The notes beneath the pieces are model-generated. The model was not told the origin of the DNA. It ran no database searches and saw only the letters and a list, made by a program, of their open reading frames with translations. Below, in pieces: positions 7,675 through 32,187 of a DNA stretch of 64,000 bases (position 1 is its first letter; every line of letters starts with the position of its first letter). Both the position numbers and the translations under genes were made by a program. The DNA comes from Candidatus Cryptobacteroides sp. (GTDB taxonomy: Bacteria; Bacteroidota; Bacteroidia; Bacteroidales; UBA932), in assembly GCA_045614445.1 (NCBI GenBank), contig JAZLCW010000009.1, positions 5,276 through 69,275 of the forward strand. The letters are read 5' to 3'.

Positions 7675-7819
7675 TAGCAGTGATTACGGAGGACTCCTTT
7701 CGCTTCGCTCACTCCGGACCCTCCCAACGTATCCTGCGTGGTATAACGACCACTTGTCTCCGTCGGGCCCCACCCGCTACCCGTGTCCACGGTTGGACAC
7801 GCCTCCTCAATCACTACTG
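7675..7819 (-). repeat. Structured repeat, copy 1 (REP/MITE-like or ncRNA)
   Basis: Minus strand: CAGTAGTGATTGAGGAGG..CCTCCGTAATCACTGCTA outer stem; CGTGTCC/GGACACG hairpin; GGGTGGGG-CCCGACG..CGTTGGG-AGGG core shared with copies 2 and 3. Confidence 0.75.
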
Positions 7820-7929
7820 TCCTCCCTCTTGGAAGACCTCGGAAATAAATTGGCTGATTTTTCGTCAAGGTATATTTGTTTTTGGGGGCAAAATGAACAT
7901 TTCTAATGACACCTTGACAAAGAATCAAT

Positions 7930-8130
7930 GAAATTCTTGTCAAGGTGAAGTCTATCCTCCGTGAAACAGAAAGAGTACTCGACATAGAACTCAGAGATGA
8001 GTCTGACAATGTCATGACAGCTGAGGAAATGCAGAAACGCACTGATGACATCCTTGCTCAGATGGACGAGAAAGGCATCAGTGACAAGAAGTTACGCAAG
8101 TCTGTAGCTAAGGTGAAGGAGGAATCAGGT
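7930..8130 (+). pseudogene. Transposase fragment, IS1182-family-like helical region
   Basis: ILVKVKSILRETERVLDIELRDESDNVMTAEEMQKRTDDILAQMDEKGISDKKLRKSVAKVKEES resembles, from memory, the segment preceding RNSYSKTD in Bacteroidales IS1182 transposases; no catalytic motifs remain. Confidence 0.5.
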
Positions 8131-8140
8131 ACATTCAGAA

Positions 8141-8275
8141 GCGGTAGTAGGGTAAGTTTGGATGGCGTGGTCAAGCGCGACCACGTAAGCGGGAGGGGCC
8201 CGACGCGTAGCGTTGGGAGGGATGGAGTCGGAACTTGTTCCGACGGAACCAAGCCAAACTTACCCCTACTACCGC
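8141..8275 (+). repeat. Structured repeat, copy 2
   Basis: Outer stem GCGGTAGTAGGGTAAGTTTGG/CCAAACTTACCCCTACTACCGC; hairpins GCGTGGTC/GACCACGT, CCCGACG/CGTTGGG, GTCGGAAC/GTTCCGAC. Confidence 0.85.
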
Positions 8276-8337
8276 GCCACAGTAACCTATAAACAAAGAA
8301 AGCCGACTAAAAAAATCACTTTTTAGTCGGCTTCATC

Positions 8338-9555
8338 TTATACCTTCAATTTACATCCGCACTTGACCAAAGCTGTGGTAATAGCCAGACACAGTAAAGA
8401 GAACAAGGCACATTTGATAAGTCCTATCGGGCCGGACAACCATTCAGGAGCAGTAAATCCGCAGAATCCTCTGACGCTATATAGAACATATGGGATCATA
8501 TAGACAGTCAATGTTGCAAGTCCTGAATATCGGAAAGGCTTGAACCAGGATAGTCTGTCGAAAGTTTCCATTGAACGTAGAATTGTATAAAAAGCGACAG
8601 ATATTGAGCCGACATACAGGCACCATGGCAGAGTACCGATATTCTTCGAAATAATCCACATATTGTGTGAAAGTGCCGCTGCAATGGCCAAGATGCCAGA
8701 TGCTGCAATAGCCATAAGGACCCTATTGCGGAATTTCAGACCACTGATGCTTGTCTCTGCCAATGAGACAAGGATACCGGCCATCGCCATTATTACAGAG
8801 GATCCGTTGCCGATATTCAGAGCCCCTGCCATATCCTGTATGAATGTAGGACCGCCGAGCAATGTTTCCCCTCCTCTGAGACGGGTCGCAAACATATTTA
8901 GAAGAAGAAGTGCCCCCCAGATGAGGAACAGATATACCGGCTTTTTGCGAAGGAGCAGATATGATGTCGAGCTGAACAGGTAAGCCCAGCCGATCAGACC
9001 AAGTATACCCCACCAGCCGGCTCTGAAAAACCCGCCTTCATCAGTGCGGAATGTGATCGCAAGAAATGTCAGAATCGCCACACCCAGAATCTGAAGCCAC
9101 CTTTTAGCCTTGAAATCCTTCGGATAAGCATTCCAGATAAGGAAGAAGGCAAGTACCATAAGGATACGGTATATTCCGACTCCGTATCCAAGGGTAGAAT
9201 CGAATCCCCCTTCTGAATTGACAATGAAGACGCCCATTATCAGCAGTGCAAATGTTCTGGAGATGATATGCCCCAAGGTGGATTCACCGGAATATCCTTT
9301 GGCAAATCTGCTTTCTACAGCATAAGGAATAGACATTCCCATCGCAAAGAGAAACATCGGAAAGACAATATCCGAAAGGCCGAGACCGTCTTCAAATGTA
9401 CCGAAGTGCTCCAGCCAGTGAGGTACCTCATGCACTGTCCAGAAATCATTGACAAAGACCATCAGAAGCATGACGAGTCCTCTGAACACATCGATTGCGG
9501 TATTGCGCCTGGTAAATAATCCGGAATCGGAATCTTCCTTGAATAGTTTTAACAT
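8338..9555 (-). CDS. DUF5009 / heparan-alpha-glucosaminide N-acetyltransferase-like membrane protein
   Basis: IDVFRGLVMLLMVFVN, DIVFPMFLFAMGMS, WWGILGLIGWAY; multi-pass membrane protein. Confidence 0.85.
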   Translation of the reverse strand: MLKLFKEDSDSGLFTRRNTAIDVFRGLVMLLMVFVNDFWTVHEVPHWLEHFGTFEDGLGLSDIVFPMFLFAMGMSIPYAVESRFAKGYSGESTLGHIISRTFALLIMGVFIVNSEGGFDSTLGYGVGIYRILMVLAFFLIWNAYPKDFKAKRWLQILGVAILTFLAITFRTDEGGFFRAGWWGILGLIGWAYLFSSTSYLLLRKKPVYLFLIWGALLLLNMFATRLRGGETLLGGPTFIQDMAGALNIGNGSSVIMAMAGILVSLAETSISGLKFRNRVLMAIAASGILAIAAALSHNMWIISKNIGTLPWCLYVGSISVAFYTILRSMETFDRLSWFKPFRYSGLATLTVYMIPYVLYSVRGFCGFTAPEWLSGPIGLIKCALFSLLCLAITTALVKCGCKLKV

Positions 9556-9659
9556 AGTATCCGTCTTTATTTTCCAAATGTACGGTTTTTCATCTGATTA
9601 ACAACTCAAGATTCAGTTTATATCACTAACTTTGTATAGCATTACTTACTGGATCGAAT

Positions 9660-11312
9660 ATGAAAATCCTCTGGCTCGACATAAACAGTTCTTACTCTCA
9701 TTCATCAGTTGCACTACCTGCAATTCATGCTCAAGTCAGCGGGAATTGCCAATGGGAATGGTGCGTGGTCAGAGGCACGATCAATGACAATCCCGGAACA
9801 ATCGCAGCAGCAGTCGCACGGCAGAAACCTGACATTATTGCTGCGACATTCTGGCTCTTTACCCATAGGATGCAGATCGAGGTCCTGTCAAGGGTATCAA
9901 TGCTTCTGGAAGGAGTGAAAGTGATATGCGGAGGACCGGAATTTCTCGGCGACAATGAGGACTTCCTTAGAACCAACAGGTTCATTACAGCAATAATTCG
10001 AGGTGAGGGCGAAAAGGCACTACCCCAGTGGCTGGAAACAGTCGCGACAGAAAGCGGTTGGAACTGCGTAGAAGGTCTGTGCTGGATAGACTCTGTAACA
10101 GGAAAATATATGGACAACGGTATCGCCAGAGTTGCAGATTTTGCTGCTTTGAAATATCCTGAACAGAGCAGTTTCTTCAATTGGGACAAACCTTTTGTAC
10201 AGCTCGAAACTACCAGAGGCTGCTTCAACACCTGTGCATTCTGCGTCAGCGGTGGTGAGAAGCCTGTCAGATATCAGAGTATCGGACAAGTCAGAGAAAG
10301 ACTTGAAAATATATCCGCGCACGGAATAAAGGACGTCAGAGTACTGGACAGAACATTCAATTACGATACAGACCGTGCATGCGAGATGCTGGACCTGTTT
10401 TCAGAGTATTCAGGCAGAATGCGTTTCCACCTGGAGATACATCCGGCGCTGCTTTCAGAGCCATTGAAAAGAAAGATTGAAACTTTACCTGAAGGTCTGC
10501 TTCATCTTGAGGCAGGGATTCAGAGTCTTGACAGCAAGGTCCTGTCAGAAAGCGGTAGAAAAGGAAGCCTCGAAGCATCACTCAAGGGTCTGGAATATCT
10601 ATGTTCCTTGAATAACCTTCAGACTCATGCCGACTTGATCGCCGGCCTGCCGGAATATACTCTTGAGATGCTCTGCAAAGATATCTTCAAACTGATCGAG
10701 ATCGGAGTGGATGAACTTCAGATAGAATCTCTTAAAGTATTGCCAGGCACTAAGATGCGTTCTGATGCAGAGAAGAAAGGAATGAAGTATTCGCTACTGG
10801 CACCATATGAAGTCCTTCAGACTCCGTCAATGTCTCCAGATGATATCCTGAAGGCGATGCAGATATCCAGAATGGTGGACCTGTACTACAATTGCCCTAC
10901 CTGGCAGAAAGTTATCAGGAGCATGATTTCGGAGGAATTCGTAAAAGATTTTACCGGATATCTGAAGACCAGGATGATCCTCGACTCCCCTGTCAGCATC
11001 GAAAGACGTGGCGTCATACTATATGAGTACTGTAAAGAAAAGTATCCGGAAAAGCTTATTGATGTATCAATTGCGTGGATCGAGGCCGGGCTATCGCTTA
11101 AGAAAGAGCCGGCAGGAGAAATCAGCAAGGTAAAGCATCTGGAAGCCTTTCTGGAAAGGGAAAATCTGCAGTTGAGTGGAAGATACGGCTGCGCGGAATC
11201 TTCACACAGGTACTTCCTGCTGAATTCAGCCGACAAAAGAATCATAATCGGCTATGACTCTCAGAATCATCAGCCGTCACCGGTATTTATAGGAGAATTA
11301 ACAAACAAATAA
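9660..11312 (+). CDS. B12-binding radical SAM protein (DUF4080-type)
   Basis: ETTRGCFNTCAFC CxxxCxxC motif, DRTFN, GIQS, HADLIAGLP; -7 box TAACTTTG at 9627-9634. Confidence 0.9.
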   Translation: MKILWLDINSSYSHSSVALPAIHAQVSGNCQWEWCVVRGTINDNPGTIAAAVARQKPDIIAATFWLFTHRMQIEVLSRVSMLLEGVKVICGGPEFLGDNEDFLRTNRFITAIIRGEGEKALPQWLETVATESGWNCVEGLCWIDSVTGKYMDNGIARVADFAALKYPEQSSFFNWDKPFVQLETTRGCFNTCAFCVSGGEKPVRYQSIGQVRERLENISAHGIKDVRVLDRTFNYDTDRACEMLDLFSEYSGRMRFHLEIHPALLSEPLKRKIETLPEGLLHLEAGIQSLDSKVLSESGRKGSLEASLKGLEYLCSLNNLQTHADLIAGLPEYTLEMLCKDIFKLIEIGVDELQIESLKVLPGTKMRSDAEKKGMKYSLLAPYEVLQTPSMSPDDILKAMQISRMVDLYYNCPTWQKVIRSMISEEFVKDFTGYLKTRMILDSPVSIERRGVILYEYCKEKYPEKLIDVSIAWIEAGLSLKKEPAGEISKVKHLEAFLERENLQLSGRYGCAESSHRYFLLNSADKRIIIGYDSQNHQPSPVFIGELTNK

Positions 11313-11325
11313 TGACACTGACACT

Positions 11326-12513
11326 ATGAACACTTTATTTCAAAAAGCTATCCAGCTCATTGCAGCAGTCACATTGGCCAGCTCGGCACTCTCTGCCCAG
11401 GAGATGAATTCACTGATGTTCAGAAAGCCAGTAAAATCTCCGGAAGTCACAGAGGACGGCATCACCTTCAGATTCAAGGCTCCTAAAGCCAGAAAGGTAC
11501 AGGTCTCTGCATCATGGCTCGGATATAACCCGGCCAATGCTGAAATGATCCAGGGTCCGGACGGAGTATGGTCACTCACACTTCCGTTACCATCTCCTGA
11601 ACTCTATACATATAACTTTGTAGTAGATGGATTATCGACTCTGGATCCGGCTAATGTAGTCGTGCTAAGAGACGGTTCAAGATATATGAATGCCGTCCTG
11701 GTGGAAGGCGATTACGCTGACTATTACAAGGAGTCAGACAAGCCGGGCAATCTGGAACAAGTCTGGTACCACTCTGCAGAAAACGACATGACACGCAGGC
11801 TCTATGTCTATACCCCATATGGTTACGATCCGAAAAAGACAAAGGTGAAATATCCTGTTCTCTACCTTCTTCATGGAGGCGGCGGTGATGAGGACGCATG
11901 GAGCACTCTCGGCCGTACATGCCAGATACTGGATAATCTCATTGCTGCAGGAAAGGCTGAGCCGATGCTCGTTGTAATGCCGAACGGCAACCCTTCACAA
12001 TACGCATCACAGACTCTTCAGATCCCTGAGAATCAGAATATCAGGAAATATAATTCCGGATTCGACAACTACACATCGCTCACAGCTGATATTGTTCCTT
12101 TCATCGAAAGCAGATACAATGTGATCGCAAAGAAGAGCGGCAGATCGGTCGCAGGTCTTTCAATGGGTGGCGGTCAGTCATTCTACATCGGATTCCGCAA
12201 TGTGGACAAATTCTCATCAGTCGGTATCTTCTCATCTGGTCTGATCGGTGCCTCAGCTATCGGCGGAGAGCCATTCGATGCTGAAAAACAGATTCCGGGA
12301 ATGCTCACTAACCCAGAAAAGTTCAATAAGTTCGATGTAATCTATCTCGCGTGCGGAGAGCAGGACAACCGCATCGACGGAATGAAGGAATTCAAGGAAA
12401 CACTTGATTCAAAAGGATATGAGGGTGTCGTATGGGAACAGTGTCCGGGAGGACACGAGTGGAAGGTCTGGAGACGTAACCTCACATCATTCGTGCAGCT
12501 GATATTCAGATAA
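11326..12513 (+). CDS. CE1-type esterase with N-terminal CBM48-like domain
   Basis: Signal peptide, [33 protein letters not shown]. Confidence 0.9.
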   Translation: MNTLFQKAIQLIAAVTLASSALSAQEMNSLMFRKPVKSPEVTEDGITFRFKAPKARKVQVSASWLGYNPANAEMIQGPDGVWSLTLPLPSPELYTYNFVVDGLSTLDPANVVVLRDGSRYMNAVLVEGDYADYYKESDKPGNLEQVWYHSAENDMTRRLYVYTPYGYDPKKTKVKYPVLYLLHGGGGDEDAWSTLGRTCQILDNLIAAGKAEPMLVVMPNGNPSQYASQTLQIPENQNIRKYNSGFDNYTSLTADIVPFIESRYNVIAKKSGRSVAGLSMGGGQSFYIGFRNVDKFSSVGIFSSGLIGASAIGGEPFDAEKQIPGMLTNPEKFNKFDVIYLACGEQDNRIDGMKEFKETLDSKGYEGVVWEQCPGGHEWKVWRRNLTSFVQLIFR

Positions 12514-12514
12514 A

Positions 12515-13141
12515 TTGGCAAAGAAAAACATCATATCGGACTTCAGTTCTCTGAAAGGGAAAGTAACCTTTTCAGAGAAGAAGTCCGTATCTGAGCCGCA
12601 GAAGGCCAAGACACCGCTTCCTTCTAAACCGAAAGAGGATATCCTGAAAGTCGGACAAAGCGTAGTCCTGATGGATTCCGATCTCAGGGGAAAAATAATC
12701 AGAATAGGCAGGAGTGTACAGATCGAACTGGAGGACGGTCTGATCATAGAAGCCGCTTTCAGTGAATTTGCAGTTACTCACGAAAGCGAGATCTACAGTC
12801 TGAAAGAAACGAAAATCCGACAGCTGAAGATCAACACCAAGGGCAGAACAGCCTCAAAGACGAAAAGTTCGGACAGCACGCTTGAAATTGATCTTCATAT
12901 AGATGCCATCCCAGGGGGCAGAACCGTTGCCAAGGGCCAGCAGCTCCAATTCCAGATGGATACTTTCCGAAACGCCATTCACCGTAACCTTAAGCACAAA
13001 GGAATGAAGATCACCTTCATACACGGAATAGGTGACGGCATATTAAAAGCTGCAATCCGAAAGGAACTGGACGAAGTCCTCGCTCTCAGATGCAGCTATT
13101 CGATAGGTGACCCGGCAGTCACCACTGTGATTATCAAATGA
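12515..13141 (+). CDS. Smr/MutS2-domain protein
   Basis: TTG start; EIDLHI and FIHGIGDGILK Smr motifs; KOW-like segment. Confidence 0.8.
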   Translation: MAKKNIISDFSSLKGKVTFSEKKSVSEPQKAKTPLPSKPKEDILKVGQSVVLMDSDLRGKIIRIGRSVQIELEDGLIIEAAFSEFAVTHESEIYSLKETKIRQLKINTKGRTASKTKSSDSTLEIDLHIDAIPGGRTVAKGQQLQFQMDTFRNAIHRNLKHKGMKITFIHGIGDGILKAAIRKELDEVLALRCSYSIGDPAVTTVIIK

Positions 13142-13789
13142 TTATTCTGGCCAGACGAACTTCGAATTGATGGATTCTCCTCCGTCCACTACTATGCTCT
13201 GTCCTGTGCAGAAACGATTCTCGACAGTAATAAAATATGCCCACCGTGCAATCTCTTCAGCAGTGGCCCATCTTTTCAATGGAGTCTGCTGCATAATCTC
13301 ATCCCACAGAACGGGATCGTTCACGACACAGTCATTGAGCGGAGTCAGAACTCCACCTGGATCCAGACTGTTGCAGACGGCACCGAATGCAGCGACTCTC
13401 AGTGCCACATTCTTGGTGTAAGCGATCACTCCACCTTTGCTGGCACAATATTCTGGGAACTCAGATCCAGTATGACCGCTCGCTGATCCGATGTTCAGAA
13501 TCGACTTTATTCCTTTGCGGACTCCATACTTTTCAGTAACTCTGATAAGAGCCTTGAGATTCACATCGATATCATCTTCATTCTGGACTCCGGCATTATT
13601 GACCAATATCTCAACGCCTTCGATTTCTGGCAGCGGGCCTCTCACATCACAGCAGACATGAGTATAATTGTCACCGATAAGGGACGATTCCTTACGGTCA
13701 AGTCCCACTACATGGTGGCCATTACTCAGGAATATCTCTGCTATTGCTCTTCCTATTCCCTGTGATGCTCCTGTTACCAGTACTTTCAT
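13142..13789 (-). CDS. Short-chain dehydrogenase/reductase
   Basis: TGASQGIG, NNAG, YCASK. Confidence 0.92.
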   Translation of the reverse strand: MKVLVTGASQGIGRAIAEIFLSNGHHVVGLDRKESSLIGDNYTHVCCDVRGPLPEIEGVEILVNNAGVQNEDDIDVNLKALIRVTEKYGVRKGIKSILNIGSASGHTGSEFPEYCASKGGVIAYTKNVALRVAAFGAVCNSLDPGGVLTPLNDCVVNDPVLWDEIMQQTPLKRWATAEEIARWAYFITVENRFCTGQSIVVDGGESINSKFVWPE

Positions 13790-13790
13790 A

Positions 13791-14120
13791 TTACTTCTTC
13801 AGGAAGCAGGTCTTGAGAACAATACTGCTGCCGTCGATCTTGCAGTCCACTTCTTCCGGATTTTCAGTCAGGCGGATACTCTTCACCTTGGTTCCACGCT
13901 TGATAACCATAGAAGAACCCTTGACCTTAAGATCCTTGATAACTGTAACAGCGTCACCATCAAAGAGTTCTGCACCATTAGAATCTCTTGCCACATCATC
14001 AGCCTCAGCTGCTTCTTCTACAGAATCGAACTCATATGCACAGTCAGGGCAAACATAAAGCGATCCGTCAAAATAAGTGTATTCACTGCCACACTTGGGG
14101 CACTTTGGAATTTCGTTCAT
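13791..14120 (-). CDS. yjdM: PhnA/YjdM zinc-ribbon protein
   Basis: CPKC..CPDC; DSNGAELFDGDAVTVIKDLKVKGSS..GTKVKSIRL. Confidence 0.92.
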   Translation of the reverse strand: MNEIPKCPKCGSEYTYFDGSLYVCPDCAYEFDSVEEAAEADDVARDSNGAELFDGDAVTVIKDLKVKGSSMVIKRGTKVKSIRLTENPEEVDCKIDGSSIVLKTCFLKK

Positions 14121-14151
14121 ATATTTTCTTGTTAAAGGGCGGCAAAAATAA

Positions 14152-14625
14152 TCATTTTGACATTACTTTCCAACGCAGCCTCCATACGCCCTCGGAATAC
14201 GAATGGCTGATTATCTTGAAGGTTCCTATCTCTGCGGTATTGGAGACATGGGCTCCGATACATGCACAAGCGTCGTAATCCCCTATCCTTACTATCCTGA
14301 GCGTCTGGGAAGCATCTTCAGGAAGCTTGCTAAGATCCACTATAGCTGCGGCCTCGTCACGTGACACAAACTCCACTGTCACATCAAGTCCTGCCGCTAT
14401 CATCTCATTGACCTTTCCCTCGATCTGAGCCACTTCTTCCGCACTCGGCTCAGCCTCCAGAATATAATCACATTTAGACTTTTTCTTCTCCACGTGGGCA
14501 TTCCTCGAGCGAGGACATCCGAACATCTTTACCATAGTGGCATTTAGAAGATGCTCCGCCGTATGAGCCGGCTCGTATTCCTGTTTATTGTGCTGATTGA
14601 GTACGATTGTTTCCATATAGAACAT
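14152..14625 (-). CDS. Stand-alone AlaX-like tRNA editing protein (tRNA_SAD)
   Basis: HTAEH and CACIGAHV Zn-binding motifs; LRIVRIGDYD. Confidence 0.8.
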   Translation of the reverse strand: MFYMETIVLNQHNKQEYEPAHTAEHLLNATMVKMFGCPRSRNAHVEKKKSKCDYILEAEPSAEEVAQIEGKVNEMIAAGLDVTVEFVSRDEAAAIVDLSKLPEDASQTLRIVRIGDYDACACIGAHVSNTAEIGTFKIISHSYSEGVWRLRWKVMSK

Positions 14626-14634
14626 TCATGGAGA

Positions 14635-15234
14635 TTAATGTGCAAAGATAAATCCGAAATAGACTCTCGGACCATAAGGTCTGTTGAGACCTTTGTGGTG
14701 GATAGCCATAAGCCAGTCTGCCTTGACGGTCAGACGTAGAGCTTCTCCCACTGCTATATCACATCCGACGAACGGATCGACTGCAAAAAAAGGCTGCTTA
14801 TTGAAGACTGCATTTGCTTCAGGAAGCCAGTCGTGACTGTCACCTTCGAACATATAATATGCTGTCTCCATTCCACCTCCGACTGTAGCTCCAAAATATG
14901 GATAAAAATGTCCTGCCTTCCAATACCAGTCAGCAAGTACACCTGTCCAGAAAAGTTTATTGTGACTTCCTTTGACAAGATCTTTTTTCAGTCCGAGAGT
15001 CGAGAAATAGCCTTCGAAGCCAGTACGGAAATGATCAGATAGATGCAGTCTTGCCACGCCCCCGATACCGAAAGTCGCTCCCTTCGGATTGAAGTCATAT
15101 GGGTTGTCACCACCGGACTGATAGCCGGAATGCAGCATCATACCTCCCGAAAATCCCTTGATGAATTTCTTTTCCTGAGCCATGCCGCAGATACAAAGCA
15201 AGCTCGTCATGCAGATCAAAATAAAACGTTTCAT
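14635..15234 (-). CDS. Hypothetical outer-membrane beta-barrel protein
   Basis: Start moved to MKRFILIC (15234); signal peptide, amphipathic strands, C-terminal YFGFIFAH. Confidence 0.65.
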   Translation of the reverse strand: MKRFILICMTSLLCICGMAQEKKFIKGFSGGMMLHSGYQSGGDNPYDFNPKGATFGIGGVARLHLSDHFRTGFEGYFSTLGLKKDLVKGSHNKLFWTGVLADWYWKAGHFYPYFGATVGGGMETAYYMFEGDSHDWLPEANAVFNKQPFFAVDPFVGCDIAVGEALRLTVKADWLMAIHHKGLNRPYGPRVYFGFIFAH

Positions 15235-15430
15235 AATTAGTTTAAGCCTTAAACAATCGATTTGGACCGACAAAAATAGGAAAATTCCTCGATATATCGC
15301 TACCCTCATTTTCTCTCTCATATCAGGTTTATAACAATGAACCGTGCATTTACGGCAGGTAGGCTTGTCATTACTTCTACGGTCTTTTCTCCTTTTCTAT
15401 CCTGTTCATATCGGCAAATATAATCATAAG

Positions 15431-15445
15431 TGGCACAATTTGTGA
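15431..15445 (+). promoter_or_regulatory. Sigma54-like promoter candidate for gadBC
   Basis: TGGCACAATTTGTGA: perfect -24 element, GA instead of GC at -12. Confidence 0.4.
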
Positions 15446-15488
15446 CCAGCCGGGACAAGAATATTACAATTTTTAAATATTATAAACT

Positions 15489-16901
15489 ATGAACACAAGA
15501 AAAAAGACGCAGGACAACAGGGACGAGATTTTCGGATCAAAGGAAATGAGGGAACCTGCACCTTCGGAATTCATCCCGAAACATAGGACACCGGCTGAAA
15601 CCGCATATCAGATGGTCAAGGACGAGACCTTTCCGCAAACCCAGCCAAGACTGAATCTCGCTACATTCGTCACGACATATATGGACGATTACGGCACCCG
15701 CCTTATGAACGAGGCTGTGGGCGTTAATTTCATCGATGAAACAGAGTATCCACGTGTAGCAGTAATGTGCGGACGATGCATCAATATGGTCGCCAATATG
15801 TGGAACACCCCTGAAAAGGGAGCATGGAAGACAGGTGCCGTAGGTATCGGTTCATCTGAAGCCTGCATGCTCGGAGGAGTGGCAGCCTGGCTCCGATGGC
15901 GTGACAGACGCAAGGCTGAAGGAAAGCCATATGACAAGCCTAATCTGGTCATGAGTACAGCATATCAGGTAGTATGGGAGAAATTCTGTCAGCTATGGCA
16001 GATAGAGATGCGTACAGTTCCGATCACACTCGAGAACCCTACATTGGATATCGAAGAGGCAATCAGGATGTGCGATGAAAATACGATCTGCATCGTGCCG
16101 ATCATGGGAGTGACCTGGACAGGAATGAACGATGATGTGGAAGGATTGAACAATGCACTTGAGGAATACAATGCAAAGACTGGATATAATATTCCTATCC
16201 ATATCGATGCGGCATCTGGCGGCTTCATCCTCCCGTTCCTGTTCCCTGAAAAGAAATGGGATTTCAGACTCAAATGGGTCTATTCGATCTCGACATCAGG
16301 TCATAAATATGGTCTGGTATATCCGGGTCTCGGCTGGGTCGTATGGCGCGACAAGAAATACCTCCCAGATGATATGTCATTCAGTGTTAATTACTTGGGG
16401 GCAAGCATCTCGCAGGTAGGACTGAACTTCTCACGTCCAGCCGCACAGATCCTGGCTCAATACTACAATTTCATCCACCTTGGAATGGAAGGCTATAAGG
16501 ACATCCATACAAATTCAATGGATATCGCAGAATACTGCCACAAGGAAATCGGAAAGATGCGCTGCTTCGAGAATTATTCCGAAAAGCTGGACAACCCTCT
16601 TTTCATCTGGAAAATGAAACCGGAATATGAAGAAAAGGCCAATTGGACCCTCTTCGACCTTCAGGACAAGCTGATGCAGAGCGGATGGATGGTACCGGCT
16701 TATACGATGCCGAAGAACATCGAGGATATGGTGGTAATGCGAATCGTAGTGCGCCAGGGCATGTCCCGCGATATGGCAGACATGCTGATCCAGGACATAC
16801 ATAATGCAGTCGTGGAACTGGAAAAGCTCAAATTCCCTACTCCATCCCGCCTGTCTTATATGAAACAGGAAAAGCAGAAAGGAAAGGTTTACACCCACTG
16901 A
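15489..16901 (+). CDS. gadB: Glutamate decarboxylase
   Basis: NLATFVTTYM, IDETEYP, GSSEACML, HIDAASGG, SGHKYG (PLP lysine). Confidence 0.97.
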   Translation: MNTRKKTQDNRDEIFGSKEMREPAPSEFIPKHRTPAETAYQMVKDETFPQTQPRLNLATFVTTYMDDYGTRLMNEAVGVNFIDETEYPRVAVMCGRCINMVANMWNTPEKGAWKTGAVGIGSSEACMLGGVAAWLRWRDRRKAEGKPYDKPNLVMSTAYQVVWEKFCQLWQIEMRTVPITLENPTLDIEEAIRMCDENTICIVPIMGVTWTGMNDDVEGLNNALEEYNAKTGYNIPIHIDAASGGFILPFLFPEKKWDFRLKWVYSISTSGHKYGLVYPGLGWVVWRDKKYLPDDMSFSVNYLGASISQVGLNFSRPAAQILAQYYNFIHLGMEGYKDIHTNSMDIAEYCHKEIGKMRCFENYSEKLDNPLFIWKMKPEYEEKANWTLFDLQDKLMQSGWMVPAYTMPKNIEDMVVMRIVVRQGMSRDMADMLIQDIHNAVVELEKLKFPTPSRLSYMKQEKQKGKVYTH

Positions 16902-16922
16902 TAATCCCCGTATGATTTTACA

Positions 16923-16968
16923 ATGTCATCCTGAGCCTGTAAAACAGATCCGTGGCGCAGGATGACAT
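16923..16968. repeat. REP-like intergenic hairpin between gadB and gadC
   Basis: ATGTCATCCTGAGCC...GGCGCAGGATGACAT. Confidence 0.55.
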
Positions 16969-16985
16969 AAAAAACGAACTGAATT

Positions 16986-18443: not shown

Positions 18444-18467
18444 CAGCAGTCAATTATAAGAATATCG

Positions 18468-20692: not shown

Positions 20693-20703
20693 AAGAAGAA
20701 ATC

Positions 20704-22676: not shown

Positions 22677-23158
22677 TCAGAAAAGCTACATACAATGATA
22701 TTCCTTCCCTTATGGAGATATTCCATAAGGCGAAGGGAATCATGCGTGCAAGCGGCAATCTGCATCAATGGAACGACTTATATCCGTCTGAGGAAATAGT
22801 CAGAAAGGATATTGACGCCGGTCACAGCATCGTTCTCTGCAAAGATTCCCGTATCATAGCTACAATGGCATTCATTCCTGGACCGGATCCGACATATGCC
22901 CATATGGAAGGCAGCTGGCTGAATGATGATCCCTATCATGTGATTCATCGCATAGCAGCAGTAGAGCCCGGGCATAAAGCAGCTGAAACCCTGATAGACT
23001 GGGCATTCACCCATACCGGATGCATCAGGATCGACACACATAAGGACAATGTGATCATGCACCATATCCTGACGCGCTACGGTTTCACTCATTGCGGCAT
23101 CATCTATCTTGCCAATGGAGATCCCCGCGAAGCATATCAGAAACGAAATCAAAAATAA
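22673..23158 (+). CDS. GNAT-family N-acetyltransferase
   Basis: Start at ATGA overlap; IRKAT, QWNDLYPS, VIHRIA, IRIDTHKDN, GFTHCGII. Confidence 0.85.
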   Translation: MIRKATYNDIPSLMEIFHKAKGIMRASGNLHQWNDLYPSEEIVRKDIDAGHSIVLCKDSRIIATMAFIPGPDPTYAHMEGSWLNDDPYHVIHRIAAVEPGHKAAETLIDWAFTHTGCIRIDTHKDNVIMHHILTRYGFTHCGIIYLANGDPREAYQKRNQK

Positions 23159-23187
23159 ATAGGGACGGCCGCTTGGTCGTCCCTATT
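23158..23187. terminator. Bidirectional terminator
   Basis: AATAGGGACGGCC-gctt-GGTCGTCCCTATT between convergent genes. Confidence 0.7.
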
Positions 23188-23207
23188 CATATGATCATAA
23201 GTGGTTC

Positions 23208-25421
<2,214 letters not shown>

Positions 25422-25507
25422 TTATACACTATTTTCGATTTTCCATCGAGGCTCCGCCACAGTGGGCGGAATTTGAAAATAAATGGAACGAAATTGACAA
25501 AAGCAGC

Positions 25508-26866
25508 CTATTTTACCTGCCACCAGTCGAAGTCAAAGAACTGCTCGTCGCCTCCGCGGAAGAGAATATATACATCATGTTTACCCGTTACAGAGCGCGC
25601 AGGGAATGTTTTCATTGCACCGGAAGCATTGACATTGAAGGTCGCAAAAGGATCTCCGCCCAATGAATCAATATAAAATTCCACGACTCCCGGAGTACGG
25701 AAATTCAAGGTCATAAGTTCAATCTCAGACGGACTTTTCTCTCCAAAATCCACCTCACGGACCCTGATCCAGTCCCCATTATGGATCTGTGTGACATAGT
25801 GATCGAAACCAGCGAGTCTGTCAGTCTTCACTCCCCACGACCAGGCCATTGTCTCCGCCTCTACCCTATTATAAGGATTGACCGTACCTACAGGACGAGG
25901 GCCCTGCTTTGTGAACGGAATGAACGGAATGCTGCCATCCTCGTTGTAAGTGAATTCCTCTACGCAGGCCGAACGATGGAAACCGCCTCCGTTAGGAAGG
26001 GCTCCATTGTGATAGAACATATAGTTCCTGCCTTTGAACTCGACTTCACCGCCGTGGATAGTAAAGGCATTTTCTGCCTCATCCATTATACGGCCTTTGT
26101 ATGTCCACGGTCCATCGACAGAAGGAGCTGTCGAATAAGCCATATGCTCGGGAACGCCACCAGCCGGGTAAGTCATGTAGTAAATATCACCTCGACGTGA
26201 AACCCATGGCCCTTCCTCATATCCTACCATCATCTCCTCACGCCCTTTAGCCCAATTCATCTTCATGGACTCAGGGCCAAAAGAGGCCGGATCATGAAAA
26301 CCAGGTACTTCCTTATATCCGTTCTCAAACGATACCATGTCCTTTCCAAGTTTTCCGTACCAGCATCCTTTGTTTCCCCAGAAAAGGTATGCACTGCCGT
26401 CGCGGTCGATGAACACTGTCGGATCGATGAATGACCATCCTGTCGCGAGCGGTCCGCCTATGGCATCCTTATACGGTCCCTGCGGATGATCAGCTACAGC
26501 CACTGCAAGGGCATCTGCATTGGTCGCAGCCTCCGTAAGACAAACATACCAATACCATTTTCCATCCCTTTCCACGGCCTGCGAAGCCCAGGCGCGGTCA
26601 CCTTGAAAGGCCCAATCGAATGTCGCAGTCGAAACAGGAGTACCCAGATAGGTCCAGTTCACCATATCCTCTGTGGAATACAGCATCCAGTCCTTCATCT
26701 TGAAATAAGTGGCATCATCCTCATCATGCCCCGTAAACATGTAAAGTTTATCACCGGATGCGAATGGTGCCGGATCGGGAGTGTAGGCTGTGGTTACAAC
26801 AGGATTCTGAGCGGAGCAGATGGCTGCCACCAGACTCAGAGCCAAAATAATGGAAGTCTTCTTCAT
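25508..26866 (-). CDS. GH43 xylosidase/arabinofuranosidase with C-terminal CBM6
   Basis: PDPAP, AWASQ, IDPTVFID, EEGPW; NPYNRVEAET..GKHDVY..FDWWQ. Confidence 0.9.
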   Translation of the reverse strand: MKKTSIILALSLVAAICSAQNPVVTTAYTPDPAPFASGDKLYMFTGHDEDDATYFKMKDWMLYSTEDMVNWTYLGTPVSTATFDWAFQGDRAWASQAVERDGKWYWYVCLTEAATNADALAVAVADHPQGPYKDAIGGPLATGWSFIDPTVFIDRDGSAYLFWGNKGCWYGKLGKDMVSFENGYKEVPGFHDPASFGPESMKMNWAKGREEMMVGYEEGPWVSRRGDIYYMTYPAGGVPEHMAYSTAPSVDGPWTYKGRIMDEAENAFTIHGGEVEFKGRNYMFYHNGALPNGGGFHRSACVEEFTYNEDGSIPFIPFTKQGPRPVGTVNPYNRVEAETMAWSWGVKTDRLAGFDHYVTQIHNGDWIRVREVDFGEKSPSEIELMTLNFRTPGVVEFYIDSLGGDPFATFNVNASGAMKTFPARSVTGKHDVYILFRGGDEQFFDFDWWQVK

Positions 26867-26952
26867 ATAAGTCGATTTTTCACAAATATAGCTGATTTAA
26901 GTATATGAAAGCCATATTTTATCCATATATTTGTGTCCACTAACACATACTT

Positions 26953-27981
26953 ATGAAACACATATTCATCACAGCATTGGCTGCTATGATATCGGTTGCA
27001 GCTGCTGCACAGGAAGCAAGTCTTCTCAAGCTCGATGTCGAGGCCAGAGTCGATTATATGCAGGATTATCAGGCTGGTGCGAAAATCAATGACGCCAGCG
27101 GATTTAAAGGCAGATATCTGAATATCCGCATGGACGGAAATCTCGCGGAAAATGTTTCTTATTCGTATCGCCAGAGGCTGAACAAGCCTAACAAAGATGC
27201 GACTTTCTTCGACGCGACCGACTGGATCATGCTCAATTACTCATTAGGAAACTGGACTCTTTCCGGCGGCAAGCAGGTAGTCGGCATCGGTGGATTCGAA
27301 TATGACGGGGCCCCTATCGATCTATATTTCTGCTCGGAGTATTGGAACAATATTGCCTGTTATCAGTATGGTGCCAGCCTTGCCTGGGATACTGATTCCA
27401 AAGCTGACAGACTGATGTTCCAGTTCTGCGAAAGCCCTTTCCGCCGCAATGCCAGGAATACGGAAAACGATGAAATGTTCGCATATAATATCATGTGGAT
27501 AGGCTCGCACGGTATCTACAGTTCATTATATTCATTGAATTTCATAGAATATCTTCCTGGCAGATTCATCAACTATCTTGCACTCGGAAACCGTTTCACT
27601 GTCGGGGATTTCAGACTCGACCTCGACTTCATGAACAGAGCGGTCAGCGCGAAGGATTTCGGAAAAGACTTCTCTGTGATGTGTGAGCTTAAATGGTTCC
27701 CTCTAAACAGCCTTGATATCTTCGCCAAAGTCACTCACGACAGAAATCTTTCCGACGATGAGGGAGACTGGTGCGTGACTCCAGGTACTGCCCTTACCAG
27801 AATCGGTGGCGGTATCGAGTACTACCCTATCAAGAACTCCAAGGCATTAAGACTGCATCTGAACTGCTGCTATACTTATGGTAAAGCTACGACAGCAACA
27901 GTCCTTCAGAACAAGCAGACAATAATAGACGCAGGTATCACCTGGAAAATGAACATGCTGAACCTCAAACGCCGATCATAA
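26953..27981 (+). CDS. Outer-membrane porin (OprO/P-like Bacteroidales family)
   Basis: Signal peptide, YRQRLNK, GKQVVGIGGFEYD; paralogous to 58327-59520; -7 box at 26926-26933. Confidence 0.75.
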   Translation: MKHIFITALAAMISVAAAAQEASLLKLDVEARVDYMQDYQAGAKINDASGFKGRYLNIRMDGNLAENVSYSYRQRLNKPNKDATFFDATDWIMLNYSLGNWTLSGGKQVVGIGGFEYDGAPIDLYFCSEYWNNIACYQYGASLAWDTDSKADRLMFQFCESPFRRNARNTENDEMFAYNIMWIGSHGIYSSLYSLNFIEYLPGRFINYLALGNRFTVGDFRLDLDFMNRAVSAKDFGKDFSVMCELKWFPLNSLDIFAKVTHDRNLSDDEGDWCVTPGTALTRIGGGIEYYPIKNSKALRLHLNCCYTYGKATTATVLQNKQTIIDAGITWKMNMLNLKRRS

Positions 27982-29126
27982 TGAAATTCTCATTCCGCAA
28001 GCTTTGGAAGCTTATCCCATCAGGAGTCGTATGTCTTGTAATCGTATTCGGACTTTTCTCCTACCTCGGAGCAGTCATGGGCACTCCGAATATGCTGAAT
28101 ACAGTAATGAACACGGCTCACGACCTTCTGCTGAACACAGTATTCTACCTTATGGCCATCTGCGTCATCACCGGTGCCATTGGCCGTATATTCATGGAAT
28201 TCGGAGTTGTAGATCTGCTCGAGAAGCTTCTGAGGCCTCTCATGAAGCCGCTTTTCAATCTGCCGGGAGTGGCATCTTTAGGAGCTGTCCTGACCTTCCT
28301 TTCGGACAATCCTGCCATAATATCATTGACTAATGACAAGCGCTTCAGCAGCTATTTCAAGAAATACCAGTTCATATCCCTCACCAATTTCGGCACAGCC
28401 TTCGGAATGGGACTTCTGGTAATAGTATTCATGGTAGGCCAAGGTTACTACGCCGAGCCATTCATCGGACTTTTCGGTGCCATCTGCGGCTGTATCGTTT
28501 CCACACGTCTTATGCAGCATTTCGTGATCAAAGCATACCCGCAATATCTGACCGAGAACGCATGTGTCACTGACACCGAAGAACATAATGAGAAACAAGA
28601 TGAAGAAAAACCCCTTTTCCAGAGAATACTTGACTCGCTTCTTGACGGAGGCCGTACTGGTGTAGATGTGGGTCTTGCCATCATTCCCGGTGTCCTTATC
28701 ATATCTACCCTTGTGATGCTCCTGACCTTCGGTCCTTCTGACACTGGAGCCTACACCGGTGCGGCATATCAGGGTATCGAGCTTCTGCCTTGGATCGGAG
28801 AAAAGATAGACTTTGTATTCAAATGGCTTTTCGGATTCGAGGACCCTCACCTTATCGCCTTCCCTATCACAGCGCTTGGAGCAGTGGGAGCTGCCCTCGG
28901 ACTTATTCCTAACTTCATTTCACAGGGATGGATCGACGGCAACGCGATTGCAGTGTTCACAGCAATCGGTATGTGCTGGAGCGGATATCTCAGCACCCAC
29001 ACTGCAATGCTTGACAGCCTCGGCTACCGCCGACTCACATCCAAGGCGATCATTGCCCATACCATAGGAGGAATTGTTGCCGCAATCGTAGCGCACTGGA
29101 CTTTCGTGTTGTATTCATTGATATAA
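27981..29126 (+). CDS. Gate-domain (nucleoside-recognition-like) membrane transporter
   Basis: Multi-TM; PLFNLPG, FLSDNPAI, NFGTAFGMG, WSGYLSTHTAM; TAATG coupling to the porin. Confidence 0.7.
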   Translation: MKFSFRKLWKLIPSGVVCLVIVFGLFSYLGAVMGTPNMLNTVMNTAHDLLLNTVFYLMAICVITGAIGRIFMEFGVVDLLEKLLRPLMKPLFNLPGVASLGAVLTFLSDNPAIISLTNDKRFSSYFKKYQFISLTNFGTAFGMGLLVIVFMVGQGYYAEPFIGLFGAICGCIVSTRLMQHFVIKAYPQYLTENACVTDTEEHNEKQDEEKPLFQRILDSLLDGGRTGVDVGLAIIPGVLIISTLVMLLTFGPSDTGAYTGAAYQGIELLPWIGEKIDFVFKWLFGFEDPHLIAFPITALGAVGAALGLIPNFISQGWIDGNAIAVFTAIGMCWSGYLSTHTAMLDSLGYRRLTSKAIIAHTIGGIVAAIVAHWTFVLYSLI

Positions 29127-29129
29127 GCG

Positions 29130-29603
29130 ATGGCTGAGCAACTCATCATATCAGACGGCAGCAAGGAAGAAAAATACGCACTGCTGTATTCGCAGGTCGC
29201 AGCATTGACTGAAAGTGAAAGCGACATGATTGCCAATATGGCCAATATCGCTTCAATGATCCACTGCACCTTCGGTTTCTGGTGGACCGGATTCTACCGT
29301 GTGATAGATGACCGATTGATATTGGGCCCTTTCCAAGGTCCTCTTGCCTGCAGCAGGATCGGATTCGGTAAAGGAGTCTGCGGAACAGCCTGGAAACTTC
29401 AGGAAACCGTCATTGTCCCGGATGTGGAAAAATTCCCAGGGCATATTGCATGCAGCAGCGCCTCCCGAAGCGAGATTGTCGTGCCGGTCTTCGACAAGGA
29501 ACGACATATAGTCATAGCAGTCCTGGACATAGACAGCGACTCGCTGGATACATTCGACCAGACCGATGCGATCTGGCTTGAAAAGATTGTAAACAAGATT
29601 TGA
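29130..29603 (+). CDS. msrC: GAF-domain free methionine-R-sulfoxide reductase (fRMsr)
   Basis: WTGFY, LGPFQG, ACSRI, GKGVCG, HIAC, SEIVVP, LDIDS. Confidence 0.88.
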   Translation: MAEQLIISDGSKEEKYALLYSQVAALTESESDMIANMANIASMIHCTFGFWWTGFYRVIDDRLILGPFQGPLACSRIGFGKGVCGTAWKLQETVIVPDVEKFPGHIACSSASRSEIVVPVFDKERHIVIAVLDIDSDSLDTFDQTDAIWLEKIVNKI

Positions 29604-29663
29604 ATCAATAATATACAGAATCATCTGAATGCAATGATTTCTGATAAATAATCCTGACCTGAT

Positions 29664-32018
29664 ATGAAAAAGAGAACGTATCTCACCCTTATCACCTGTA
29701 TAACTATTTCATTCTCAAGCATTCAGACCGGTGCTCAGATTCCAGCCCAGCTGGAACATTTCGAAATCAAGGATGTCCATCTCACAGAAAGCGCATTCAA
29801 GAAGGCGCAGGACATGGACATCAGATATCTCCTGTCATTGGATCCTGACAGACTGCTTGCTCCTTACATGAAGGAAGCAGGGCTGAAGCCTAAGGCTGAG
29901 AACTATACGAACTGGGAGAATACCGGACTGGACGGTCACGTAGGCGGTCACTATCTGTCCGCACTTTCCTATATGTATGCATCCACAGGGAATCAGGAAA
30001 TCAAAGACAGGCTGGACTACTATATCTCGGAGCTGAAACGATGCGTGGACCAGGAGGGTTACCTGAGCGGTGTTCCACACGGAAGGCAGATCTGGAAGGA
30101 GATTTCCGAAGGCAATATCAGAGCGGCTTCATTCGGTCTGAACGACAGATGGGTACCTCTGTATAATATCCATAAGATATATGCAGGACTTCGCGACGCA
30201 TATCTTATTACAGGCAGCAAGGATGCATTGAAGATGTTCCTTGGCCTGACTGAGTGGATGTACCAGCTCACAGAGGGACTGAGTGAAGAACAGCTCCAGG
30301 ATATGCTGAGGAGTGAGCAAGGAGGTCTGAATGAAGTATTTGCGGATGCAGCGGCATTGAGTGGCGACCCAAGATATCTTGATCTGGCAAAGAGATTTTC
30401 ACACAAATACCTCCTCGGCTTCCTTCTGGAAAAAGAGGACAGGCTCACAGGAATGCACGCCAACACCCAGATTCCTAAGGTAATCGGATATAAGAGGATT
30501 GCAGATATCGAAGGTCTGCAGGACTGGGATGAGGCAGCGGAATTCTTCTGGGAGACTGTGGTCGAGAAAAGAAGCATCAGCATCGGAGGAAACAGTGTCT
30601 ATGAACACTTCCATCCGGCTGAAGACTTCTCATCAATGCTCACCAGCGAACAGGGTCCGGAGACCTGCAACACTTACAATATGCTGAGACTCACCAAGAT
30701 GCTTTACACCACAAGCAGTGATTCAAAGTATATGGACTATTACGAAAGGGCTCTTTACAATCATATCCTTTCCACCATCAATCCGATCCAGGGAGGATTC
30801 GTATATTTCACCCCTATGCGTTCAGGGCACTACAGAGTGTATTCACAGCCTCAGACAAGTTTCTGGTGCTGCGTAGGCTCAGGTATCGAGAATCACGCAC
30901 GCTACGGTGAAATGATCTATTCTCACAAAGGAGACAAAGAGTTGATTGTGAATCTGTTCATCCCGTCTGTCCTGCGATGGGGCAAGACCGTCATCGAGCA
31001 GAAGAATAGCTTCCCTGCAGAGGAAGGAACTACACTCATCATTAGCCCGAAGAAAAACACAGAATTCACCGTCAGCATACGTATTCCGGAATGGACCGAA
31101 GCTGACAATATGAATCCGAAGGTCAATGGCATGGCTGTCGAATATGTGATCGAGAACAATCTCCTGAAGATAGACAGGAAATGGTCGGAAGGTGACAGAT
31201 TGACAATAAATCTTCCGATGACTCTCAGAGCGGTGCAACTTCCGGACAAGTCTGAAAATTACTCCTTCATGTATGGTCCGATGGTATTGGCAGCTTCTCT
31301 TGGAAAAGAGGATCAGCTGGGAATGTACGCCGATGACAGCAGGGGTGGACATATCGCCGCAGGCAAGCAGCTGCCGCTCAATGAGATGCCTCTGATAGTA
31401 GGAGAAAAGGAGGATATGCTCTCGCTCATAAGCAAGGTGGAAGGCAAGCCGCTTACCTTCAGGATGACAGGACTTGCTCCGTTGAAATACAAGGAACTGA
31501 CTCTGGTACCATTCTCTTCTCTGCACGAATGCCGCTATATGGTGTATTGGCCATTGGTCTCAGACAATGAGTGGAAGGCAAGACTTGCAAAGCAGGAGAT
31601 GGATGAGAGAGCCAGAATTGCTCTGGAAATGATCACTGCAGATAAGGTGATATGTGGAGAGCAGCAGCCGGAAAGCGACCATTTCGCAGCTGTGGCACAT
31701 TCGGTAAACGGCGACAACGACGGCCGTCATTGGAGAATGACAGGTCCGGAGGGATGGTTCAGCTATACGATGAATCCTAAAGACAATACAATCCAGCATA
31801 TCAGAATCACATGCAGAGGATCGGAAGGCAATGAGGCAATGGTCATGGTAAACGGAGTCGAGGCAGGCAGTTTCAAGACGATGATGCCTGGAAATGACGA
31901 GATGCACCTGGTTCCGGTTCCGGCAGAGCTTCAGAATGCGGATCTTATGACAGTGACGGTCAAAGGTATAAATGGTCAGTCTTCTCCTATGATTTACGAA
32001 GTGAGATTGTCTTTATAA
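29664..32018 (+). CDS. GH127/GH146 beta-L-arabinofuranosidase
   Basis: GHVGGHYLSA, HANTQIPK, ETCNTYNM, WCCVGSG; C-terminal GEQQPESDH domain. Confidence 0.9.
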   Translation: MKKRTYLTLITCITISFSSIQTGAQIPAQLEHFEIKDVHLTESAFKKAQDMDIRYLLSLDPDRLLAPYMKEAGLKPKAENYTNWENTGLDGHVGGHYLSALSYMYASTGNQEIKDRLDYYISELKRCVDQEGYLSGVPHGRQIWKEISEGNIRAASFGLNDRWVPLYNIHKIYAGLRDAYLITGSKDALKMFLGLTEWMYQLTEGLSEEQLQDMLRSEQGGLNEVFADAAALSGDPRYLDLAKRFSHKYLLGFLLEKEDRLTGMHANTQIPKVIGYKRIADIEGLQDWDEAAEFFWETVVEKRSISIGGNSVYEHFHPAEDFSSMLTSEQGPETCNTYNMLRLTKMLYTTSSDSKYMDYYERALYNHILSTINPIQGGFVYFTPMRSGHYRVYSQPQTSFWCCVGSGIENHARYGEMIYSHKGDKELIVNLFIPSVLRWGKTVIEQKNSFPAEEGTTLIISPKKNTEFTVSIRIPEWTEADNMNPKVNGMAVEYVIENNLLKIDRKWSEGDRLTINLPMTLRAVQLPDKSENYSFMYGPMVLAASLGKEDQLGMYADDSRGGHIAAGKQLPLNEMPLIVGEKEDMLSLISKVEGKPLTFRMTGLAPLKYKELTLVPFSSLHECRYMVYWPLVSDNEWKARLAKQEMDERARIALEMITADKVICGEQQPESDHFAAVAHSVNGDNDGRHWRMTGPEGWFSYTMNPKDNTIQHIRITCRGSEGNEAMVMVNGVEAGSFKTMMPGNDEMHLVPVPAELQNADLMTVTVKGINGQSSPMIYEVRLSL

Positions 32019-32020
32019 CA

Positions 32021-32187
32021 GATAATAAAATTGAAGAGCGAGTAGGTAAGTTTGGCGGGCGTGGCCACCCTCGGCCTCGCCGCGTTAGAGGGAGGGGCCC
32101 GCCGCGCAGCGGTGGGAGGGACGAAGTCGGAACTTGTTCCGACGAAGCCACGCCAGACTTACCTGCTCAGTGGTCAATTTTATTATC
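32021..32187 (+). repeat. Structured repeat, copy 3 (core 32040-32168) inside a 14-bp perfect outer inverted repeat
   Basis: GAGTAGGTAAGTTTGGCG/CGCCAGACTTACCTGCTC stem; GGGAGGGG-CCCGCCG/CGGTGGG-AGGG; GTCGGAACTTGTTCCGAC identical to copy 2; flanks GATAATAAAATTGA and TCAATTTTATTATC. Confidence 0.85.

Follow-up and report, generated by a model that had tools for sequence, protein, structure and literature searches.

What kind of genetic entity is a small repeat that keeps an elaborate fold while its sequence drifts? The question is raised by a stretch of 64,000 nucleotides of Candidatus Cryptobacteroides sp. DNA (assembly GCA_045614445.1, contig JAZLCW010000009.1, positions 5,276 to 69,275; hereafter the window), which carries three divergent copies of such a repeat, called the element below. 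The original prediction, made from the letters of the window, offered two readings: a lineage-specific non-autonomous mobile element, perhaps related to the repetitive extragenic palindromic (REP) sequences that RAYT transposases mobilise, or a non-coding RNA. We regard the repeats as a non-autonomous palindromic mobile DNA element whose single-strand fold would serve its own mobility, a reading to which we assign a probability of roughly 0.6. The three copies are accordingly best described as probable members of a large, lineage-specific family of small gene-less palindromic mobile elements. The range of copy numbers, the patchy spread, the insertions within genes and a locus found inverted support this half of the original prediction.

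The three copies are located at 7675-7819 (minus strand), 8141-8275 (plus strand) and 32022-32187 (plus strand). Matches to covariance models have E values of 1.5e-9 (model R1), 2.3e-16 and 3.4e-16, respectively. The predicted positions and strands are correct. In addition, the core pattern GGGGCCC-N(10-40)-TGGGAGGG is found three times in the window and in none of 100 dinucleotide-preserving shuffles. Two details have to be amended. The predicted extent of copy 3, 32040-32168, is its conserved part, but the palindrome reaches about 32022-32187 by means of 14-bp outer arms past a 5-nt bubble. Furthermore, the three copies are real, but the genome total is seven.

The element is about 100-170 bp long and contains no genes. 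Its consensus, drawn from about 50 copies, begins with a variable closing stem, P1 (12-41 bp, mean 24), the inner part of which is often GAAACC/GGTTTC. Then follow the hairpin P2 with the loop A-CCCNN, a short joiner ending in NN, and GGGAGGGG. The hairpin P3, which always opens with CCC and closes with GGG, leads to AGGG, an optional hairpin P4 and the P1 partner. This corresponds to the predicted order P1-P2-GGG(A/T)GGGG-P3-AGGG-P4-P1', and the long P3 ascribed to copy 1 and the same P4 ascribed to copies 2 and 3 are likewise correct. The G-rich core of copy 1 (7719-7775, minus strand) consists of GGGTGGGG, a P3 hairpin with a branched insert and TGGGAGGG, and the P4 of this long-P3 form contains GCGAAGC; the cores of copies 2 and 3 occupy 8191-8221 and 32090-32120 (both plus strand). 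Aligned with each other, the three copies have a mean column identity of 68% and an invariant block, GGG(A/T)GGGGCCCG...TGGGAGGG. Folding of the G-rich strand, compared with shuffles, gives z scores of -3.4, -6.6 and -5.7 for copies 1, 2 and 3; the complementary strands also fold well, as palindromes should.

A further helix had been missed. Bases of the P2 loop pair with the two bases preceding GGGAGGGG, such that the loop CCCNN is matched by NN-GGG just 5′ of GGGAGGGG. The pairings seen are CCCGC/GCGGG, CCCTC/GAGGG, CCCGT/ACGGG, CCCAC/GTGGG and CCCAT/ATGGG. On alignment A2, which comprises 43 family members, 99% of this helix is paired. Two of its pairs vary (GC 21, UA 17 and AU 5 at one position, CG 26 and UA 17 at the other), and neither has an unpaired cell. 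Judged from the sequences, the helix would form either a pseudoknot, the term used below, or a hairpin alternative to P2. In copy 2 the P2 loop is mutated (AAGCGC for ACCCGC) and the pseudoknot is broken, but near-identical relatives in genome G008 retain it.

Covariation was scored on A2 against 500 shuffles and slid controls. Of all cells in this alignment 92% are paired, and 126 cells are changed on both sides compared with 37 expected, a level reached in none of the 500 shuffles; the predicted retention of pairing despite divergence thus holds well beyond the three copies. Double-sided changes affect P3 pairs 5-7 in 16-19 of the 43 sequences. P3 pair 4 is A-U in 21/43 and G-U in 20/43, where the other strand would give an A-C mismatch. 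In P1, 94% of 1168 pairs are Watson-Crick, and the mismatches comprise 25 G-T versus 10 A-C (p 0.017). The G-U wobble at P3 pair 4 and the G-T excess in P1 therefore indicate that the selected fold is on the G-rich strand, and the strand-specific wobble of the original prediction is real. The unpaired purine joiners are invariant.

The loops were counted over 53 copies. The apical loop of P3 is a C-GNA-G triloop in 21 of them, and the heptamer GCGAAGC occurs in the P4 region of 25. Both C-GNA-G triloops and GCGAAGC are DNA mini-hairpins of exceptional stability and differ from the usual RNA tetraloops, which hints that the fold is important in single-stranded DNA. The G tracts follow the order GGG-A-GGGG, hairpin, GGG-A-GGG, an arrangement that might fold into a G-quadruplex. 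With regard to variants, a public contig of run X1 jumps 46 nt of copy 3 (32101-32146), from inside P3 through P4, and P4-less variants of the same type occur elsewhere in the family. P4 is also absent from the subfamily of genome G140, which is nested in a larger repeated unit with inverted CCGGCACTTTCCC / GGGAAAGTG motifs in its flanks (L238-L247).

The P1 arms differ among most assembled copies, even between copies of the same genome with identical cores, and have a loose purine-rich consensus in common. In the recently expanded subfamilies of G149 and G140 the arms are conserved, and in one G149 paralogue all five P1 differences (5/5) are compensated on the opposite arm. Inside aroK and an M20 peptidase gene (see below), both arms are additional when compared with insert-free orthologues; the arms therefore belong to the element. 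We also considered that the arms might derive from the local target as inverted copies, or from palindromes already present there. This is unsupported at the aroK and M20 sites, where both arms are extra; such an origin is possible for some intergenic copies with terminator-like arms. We infer that the two arms evolve fast and in concert, by hairpin selection and by template-switch correction of quasi-palindromes.

The family is large and unevenly distributed. In the source assembly (2.48 Mb in 109 contigs, 46.5% G+C, 78% complete) the pattern and the covariance model identify the same seven copies, four of which lie beyond the window: two on contig C40 and one each on C36 and C86. In 13 of 24 genus relatives the exact core is present (1-36 copies per genome), and a reversed control pattern has no match in these 24. 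A covariance model derived from 43 copies extended the search of genome and relatives that had been proposed with the original prediction, and it matched 45 of the 141 genomes searched in this GTDB family, which belong to 13 of 37 genera. Genera differ: some are positive in 7/7 or 8/8 genomes, others in 0/7 or 0/8. The copy number per related genome ranges from 0 to 30 or more, with 30 or more in G149, and both G149 and G140 display bursts of near-identical copies. Of 148 other families of the same order, only 1 has a match. Public records that hold the core are metagenome-assembled genomes (MAGs) of ruminant and gut Bacteroidales. Many matches sit at contig ends, as near-identical copies break assemblies; draft assemblies favour the retention of old, diverged copies.

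Copies 1 and 2 are found within one larger structure, the relic of an IS1182-family insertion sequence (IS). Its left terminal hairpin (7600-7652) is a homologue of the AGAGGGTGACTAAAAAGT hairpin found at the termini of intact relatives, and the intact ISs of G063, G067, G062, G045, G009, G144 and G209 have this hairpin at their left end. The middle fragment of the transposase gene (VKSILRE...; 7945-8140, plus strand), identified by its open reading frame (ORF) and by tblastn, is 42% identical to residues 171-276 of the G067 transposase; the segment is also part of the intact G063 element. The frame continues without a stop into copy 2, up to 8292. The right terminal hairpin (8299-8334) is terminator-like on the minus strand, and a repeat in common with contig C80 ends just past it. 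Since the fragment matches transposase residues 171-276, 7600-8340 is an internally deleted copy of the IS. This confirms a separate note made with the original prediction, which described 7601-8333 as an IS1182-like relic, and accounts for copies 1 and 2. They represent the left and the right sub-terminal module of the relic, respectively, and copy 1 matches the inverted left module of the IS on G063:C37. The predicted location between convergent genes is correct for all three copies, but copies 1 and 2 sit there within this single relic. Apart from the IS terminal hairpin, neither promoter nor terminator signals exceed chance at copies 1 and 2.

Intact relatives show how the modules are arranged. 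On G063:C37, the terminal hairpin is followed on the left side by an inverted copy-1-type module, a palindromic operator-like site and the transposase gene, the product of which carries the motif KTD.DATFMRMKED; on the right side, a copy-2-type module overlaps the end of the ORF and precedes the terminal hairpin. The more distant ISs of G067, G062 and G009 share this layout (in the N-terminal 123 residues of the G008 query, identity is 55-76%), and the IS of G045 (72%) has degenerate module remnants at both ends. In G008 the same layout encloses a longer insert, namely the N- and C-terminal parts of an IS1182-family transposase. This genome also contains 9 or more copy-2-type copies of 87-98% identity, several directly after the transposase C-terminus. 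Between one IS and another the left-type modules are conserved, and so are the right-type modules; the modules have therefore moved together with this clade of ISs. In G144 and G209, sister ISs of about 50% identity have the same terminal hairpins, beginning with AGAGGGTGACTAAAAAGT, and no modules. The modules are accessory, placed just inside the terminal stem-loops of the IS. A separate feature, present at L186:215-260 and at the G063, G067, G045 and G009 loci, is a conserved perfect palindrome between the left module and the transposase start, which in intact ISs is of the AATAGCTATT..N..AATAGCTATT type; a palindrome of the TTGACAAGAAT type is found at 7900-7945 in the relic. Possibly, it is an operator or promoter element of the IS.

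The association with the IS1182 family is twofold: the element is a passenger at the ends of the ISs described above, and the target of another one. The latter, an unrelated IS1182-type IS on contig C80 (85-1800; L154/L229), encodes a 488-aa DDE transposase with the Pfam domains DUF772 and DDE_Tnp_1_6 and has 16-bp terminal inverted repeats (TIRs), GAGGCCACTGAAAAAG. Relatives occur in G197, G104 and G206 (L230-L235). The 70-bp inverted flanks on C80 were considered as long TIRs, which would have made this IS the parent of copy 1; this was rejected because the relatives give a 16-bp TIR. Three independent copies of the element have the C80-type IS at the P2 foot, namely those on both C80 flanks and the one in G206. 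The two C80 flanks are not alike (identity to copy 1 is 88% for one and 96% for the other), as if an IS-mediated inversion had joined two separate loci. Insertion at the P2 foot fits the stem-loop targeting reported in the IS1272/IS1182 family.

Solo copies, by comparison, have neither IS terminal hairpins nor a transposase remnant. Copy 3 is of this kind and takes up the space between two convergent genes. In DNA run X6, a 7.4-kb contig contains both flanks of this copy with 32030-32189 in the opposite orientation; the core is therefore present in both orientations at this locus. None of the public contigs over copy 3 omits the whole element, which is uninformative either way. Other copies are situated within housekeeping genes, where they fall into loops and linkers of the encoded proteins. 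In the source genome, three of the seven copies are in frame and stop-free inside miaA, aroK and the M20 peptidase gene of the arg cluster. In miaA, the insert corresponds to about 44 additional residues, which follow the P-loop helix and precede EIISADS. In distant genus relatives the miaA, aroK and M20 sites are free of inserts, some with short remnants; the closest genus relatives carry the element at the same gene sites with different arms. Among 54 copies in relatives, 18 lie within long spanning ORFs. According to Pfam these are genuine genes: domains flank the insert on both sides in ribF and in the genes of a THUMP-like protein and an rlmI-like methyltransferase, two ygiQ-like radical SAM genes have one Radical_SAM_N match that extends across it, and it comes after domain III in two dnaX genes. 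Judged from the peptides, the sense strand is C-rich in 10 of the 13 in-gene copies examined. In-frame copies measure about 117-135 nt in miaA, aroK, ribF and dnaX, and the element lengthens the essential proteins MiaA, AroK, DnaX and RibF by about 40 residues.

How could such an element move? It would be mobilised in trans while one strand is folded, either as an extruded hairpin or cruciform or as single-stranded DNA at the replication fork. What the enzyme would recognise is the conserved core in combination with any stem, and the most plausible candidate may be a structure-dependent DDE transposase of the IS1182 kind. Pairing of P1 would be upheld by hairpin selection and by arm-to-arm correction through template switching, which would explain why P1 varies between copies and is yet about 94% Watson-Crick.

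Several observations weigh against this reading. Neither copy 3 nor the in-gene copies nor the G149 and G140 subfamilies show a consistent direct repeat that would mark a target-site duplication; the flanks of the element are often further inverted repeats or GCGNAGC mini-hairpins. A common terminal sequence cannot be defined, and the P1 termini bear no resemblance to the TIRs of either IS1182-type element (AGAGGGTGACTAAAAAGT, GAGGCCACTGAAAAAG). At the strain level no clean pair of filled and empty alleles was found, and a DNA search of five close relatives for empty orthologous sites matched only repeats because the flanks are too diverged. Neither transposase tracks the element: among the 141 genomes, 18 have the G067 type, 5 the C80 type and 45 the element; draft MAGs may conceal IS copies. 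The genera g26 and g36 are entirely element-positive with almost no transposase of either type, and two single-contig genomes with 7 and 11 copies yielded neither type. The sister ISs without modules indicate that the modules are dispensable for that IS, and a covarying pseudoknot of two helices exceeds the needs of known MITEs (miniature transposable elements with inverted repeats). Lastly, contigs of the element 3′ half sum to a depth of 865 in the metatranscriptome run X16 compared with about 9 for flanking genes, a ratio of about 100 versus 4-11 in DNA runs. This depth is strandless and summed over contigs of many loci and organisms, and DNA carry-over may contribute; it hints only weakly at an abundance or stability of RNA that contains the element.

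The X16 depth bears on the best of the alternatives, according to which the repeats form a structured non-coding RNA gene family or a cis-acting RNA module, with mobility being secondary. Selection would then act on the multi-way junction and the pseudoknot in the RNA, which could for example protect a 3′ end, serve as a protein sponge through its two GGGAGGG sites or be a self-cleaving ribozyme yet to be discovered. We consider this unlikely, although none of the 500 shuffles or the slid controls attains the covariation of P2, P3 and the pseudoknot, the wobbles are confined to the G-rich strand, the purine joiners are invariant, and the right-end module lies in sense orientation across the 3′ end of the transposase mRNA. 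The 10 of 13 in-gene copies with a C-rich sense strand would not produce a G-rich RNA, another strain has the core of copy 3 in the opposite orientation, and the loops are mostly GNA triloops and GCGAAGC instead of the GNRA and UUCG loops typical of RNA. Moreover, no promoter or terminator is consistently attached, and the X16 signal is subject to the mixture and carry-over just described. Rfam has no match at gathering score for the window and 8 related loci, in line with the original prediction, which could not assign the repeat to a named family; a sub-threshold match to h2cR (24 bits against a gathering score of 70) was rejected as chance. Ribozyme covariance models gave no match at E values up to 10. 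A literature search with the core motif as text returned unrelated eukaryotic papers only, and a keyword search on REP and G-quadruplex nothing relevant.

The combination of G-rich joiners and a covarying pseudoknot also suggests a more speculative interpretation, to which we lend little credence: the core would be an active nucleic-acid device that drives hairpin-dependent mobility with arm-to-arm correction and dispenses with a sequence-specific transposase. Such a device could be a self-cleaving or self-ligating ribozyme of a new type, a structure of single-stranded DNA, or a switch between hairpin and G-quadruplex.

It is very improbable that the elements are only cis-acting end structures of IS1182-family ISs, which bind the transposase or insulate the IS and are not independently mobile, with solo copies as IS leftovers. 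It is true that five diverged ISs have a module at either end in the same inverted arrangement, that the left and right types diverge along with the IS, and that the relic in the window shows deletions of this sort to occur. However, sister ISs with the same terminal hairpins are devoid of modules, and solo copies show no trace of those hairpins or of a transposase. Furthermore, the short in-frame copies in miaA, aroK, ribF and dnaX cannot be IS remnants, and element-rich genomes, complete ones included, have no such IS.

The genome encodes two single-copy Y1_Tnp (HUH) proteins of 306-310 aa (C90:3569-4498, minus strand; C19:11366-12286, plus strand; L236, L237) whose N-terminal domain is HUH Y1-transposase-like and whose C-terminal tail resembles a helix-turn-helix. 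Folding of a single strand combined with guide-like base pairing is reminiscent of the chemistry of IS200/IS605 and REP elements. Nevertheless, a REP/REPIN-type element moved by a RAYT (HUH Y1) transposase is the least probable reading of all: the GTAG found near the 5′ end of the three window copies is no family trait (8/53 members, with 12% expected from shuffles), elements of 100-170 nt with four helices are neither 20-40-nt hairpins nor simple doublets, and the Y1 genes adjoin no repeat found here and lie on contigs (C90 and C19) that hold no element; while 8 of the 11 genomes (among the 141) with the 310-aa C90-type protein are element-positive, 37 of the 45 element-positive genomes lack a Y1 protein, including 8/8 of genus g26, and the predicted RAYT link is thus unsupported.

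Related cores are found outside the Bacteroidales. In Alphaproteobacteria (Caulobacter, Sphingomonas, Azospirillum and Rhodospirillales MAGs), a dispersed repeat has the same core in another setting, with the order CCCTCTCCC-N4-GGGAGA, GGGAGGGGCCC-hairpin-GGGAGGG, TGAGGG, often as inverted pairs about 100 nt apart. It comprises the loci L031, L052, L134, L115, L145 and about 60 others, and has no Rfam match at gathering score. Either common descent or convergence may account for its likeness to the Bacteroidales element. In addition, L036 and L049 (Microbacterium) and L070 (Caloramator australicus) contain the GGGAGGGGCCC-hairpin-GGGAGGG core within long locus-specific closing stems, which measure 20-27 bp in the two Microbacterium loci; these three loci have no P2 of the Bacteroidales type. 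Other single matches of the core in high-G+C genomes are probably chance. Should the core be an active device as considered above, its occurrence in Microbacterium and Caloramator, together with the alphaproteobacterial variant, would define a cross-phylum class.

For the poorly studied Bacteroidales of rumen and gut, a well-defined repeat family is added. Its repeats fragment MAG assemblies and generate spurious ORFs. As mobile DNA, the element is an unusually clear case of a multi-helix, pseudoknotted single-strand fold that is conserved while the terminal stems drift, which indicates structure-dependent rather than sequence-dependent recognition. If an IS1182-type transposase moves the element, its copies are natural substrates for a little-studied mechanism; if not, another route of mobilisation exists.

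We finally relate the element to known systems. With REP sequences and REPINs it has in common the dispersed extragenic palindrome, the folding of one strand and the frequent position between convergent genes. In contrast to them, it lacks a conserved GTAG head, is three to five times longer and multi-helix, and neither flanks nor is co-distributed with a RAYT gene.

IS1272 and other members of the IS1182 family target stem-loops (PMC5678879). The element resembles IS1272 in that it adjoins stem-loops, namely IS terminal hairpins and gaps between convergent genes, and an IS1182-type IS is found at the P2 foot in three copies. Unlike the element, IS1272 is an autonomous IS with 16-bp inverted repeats; mobilisation of the element by such an enzyme is our own suggestion. 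To our knowledge, no conserved multi-helix core has been described for IS1272.

Rickettsia palindromic elements (RPEs), reportedly described by Ogata et al. in 2000, are said to be about 100-150 bp long and to be tolerated in frame in conserved genes as well as in intergenic regions. By behaviour the element is similar: a palindromic repeat, in frame and stop-free in conserved genes, with intergenic copies too. The RPE host belongs to a different phylum, however, so that true membership is improbable, and the likeness is one of behaviour. We know of no RPE that carries a covarying pseudoknot or flanks an IS.

MITEs of the IS1182 family comprise MITEPye1 of Paracoccus yeei (PMC11578231) and the ISMac2-partnered MITEs of Methanosarcina acetivorans (PMC3852290), which have 18-26-bp TIRs in common with their partner IS and 4-bp direct repeats. 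Like these, the element is short (about 130-170 bp), non-coding, multi-copy, dispersed and mostly intergenic, forms a long stem-loop and is associated with IS1182-type ISs. The differences concern the ends and the interior. The element shows neither TIRs like those of an IS1182-family partner nor co-occurrence with a compatible transposase: the P1 termini vary and match neither IS TIR, and no duplication is seen. Furthermore, the element conserves an internal asymmetric core with a pseudoknot, and many copies are intragenic. All tests of a REP/RAYT relationship were negative, and the element is closest to the IS1182-type MITEs and, by behaviour, to the RPEs.

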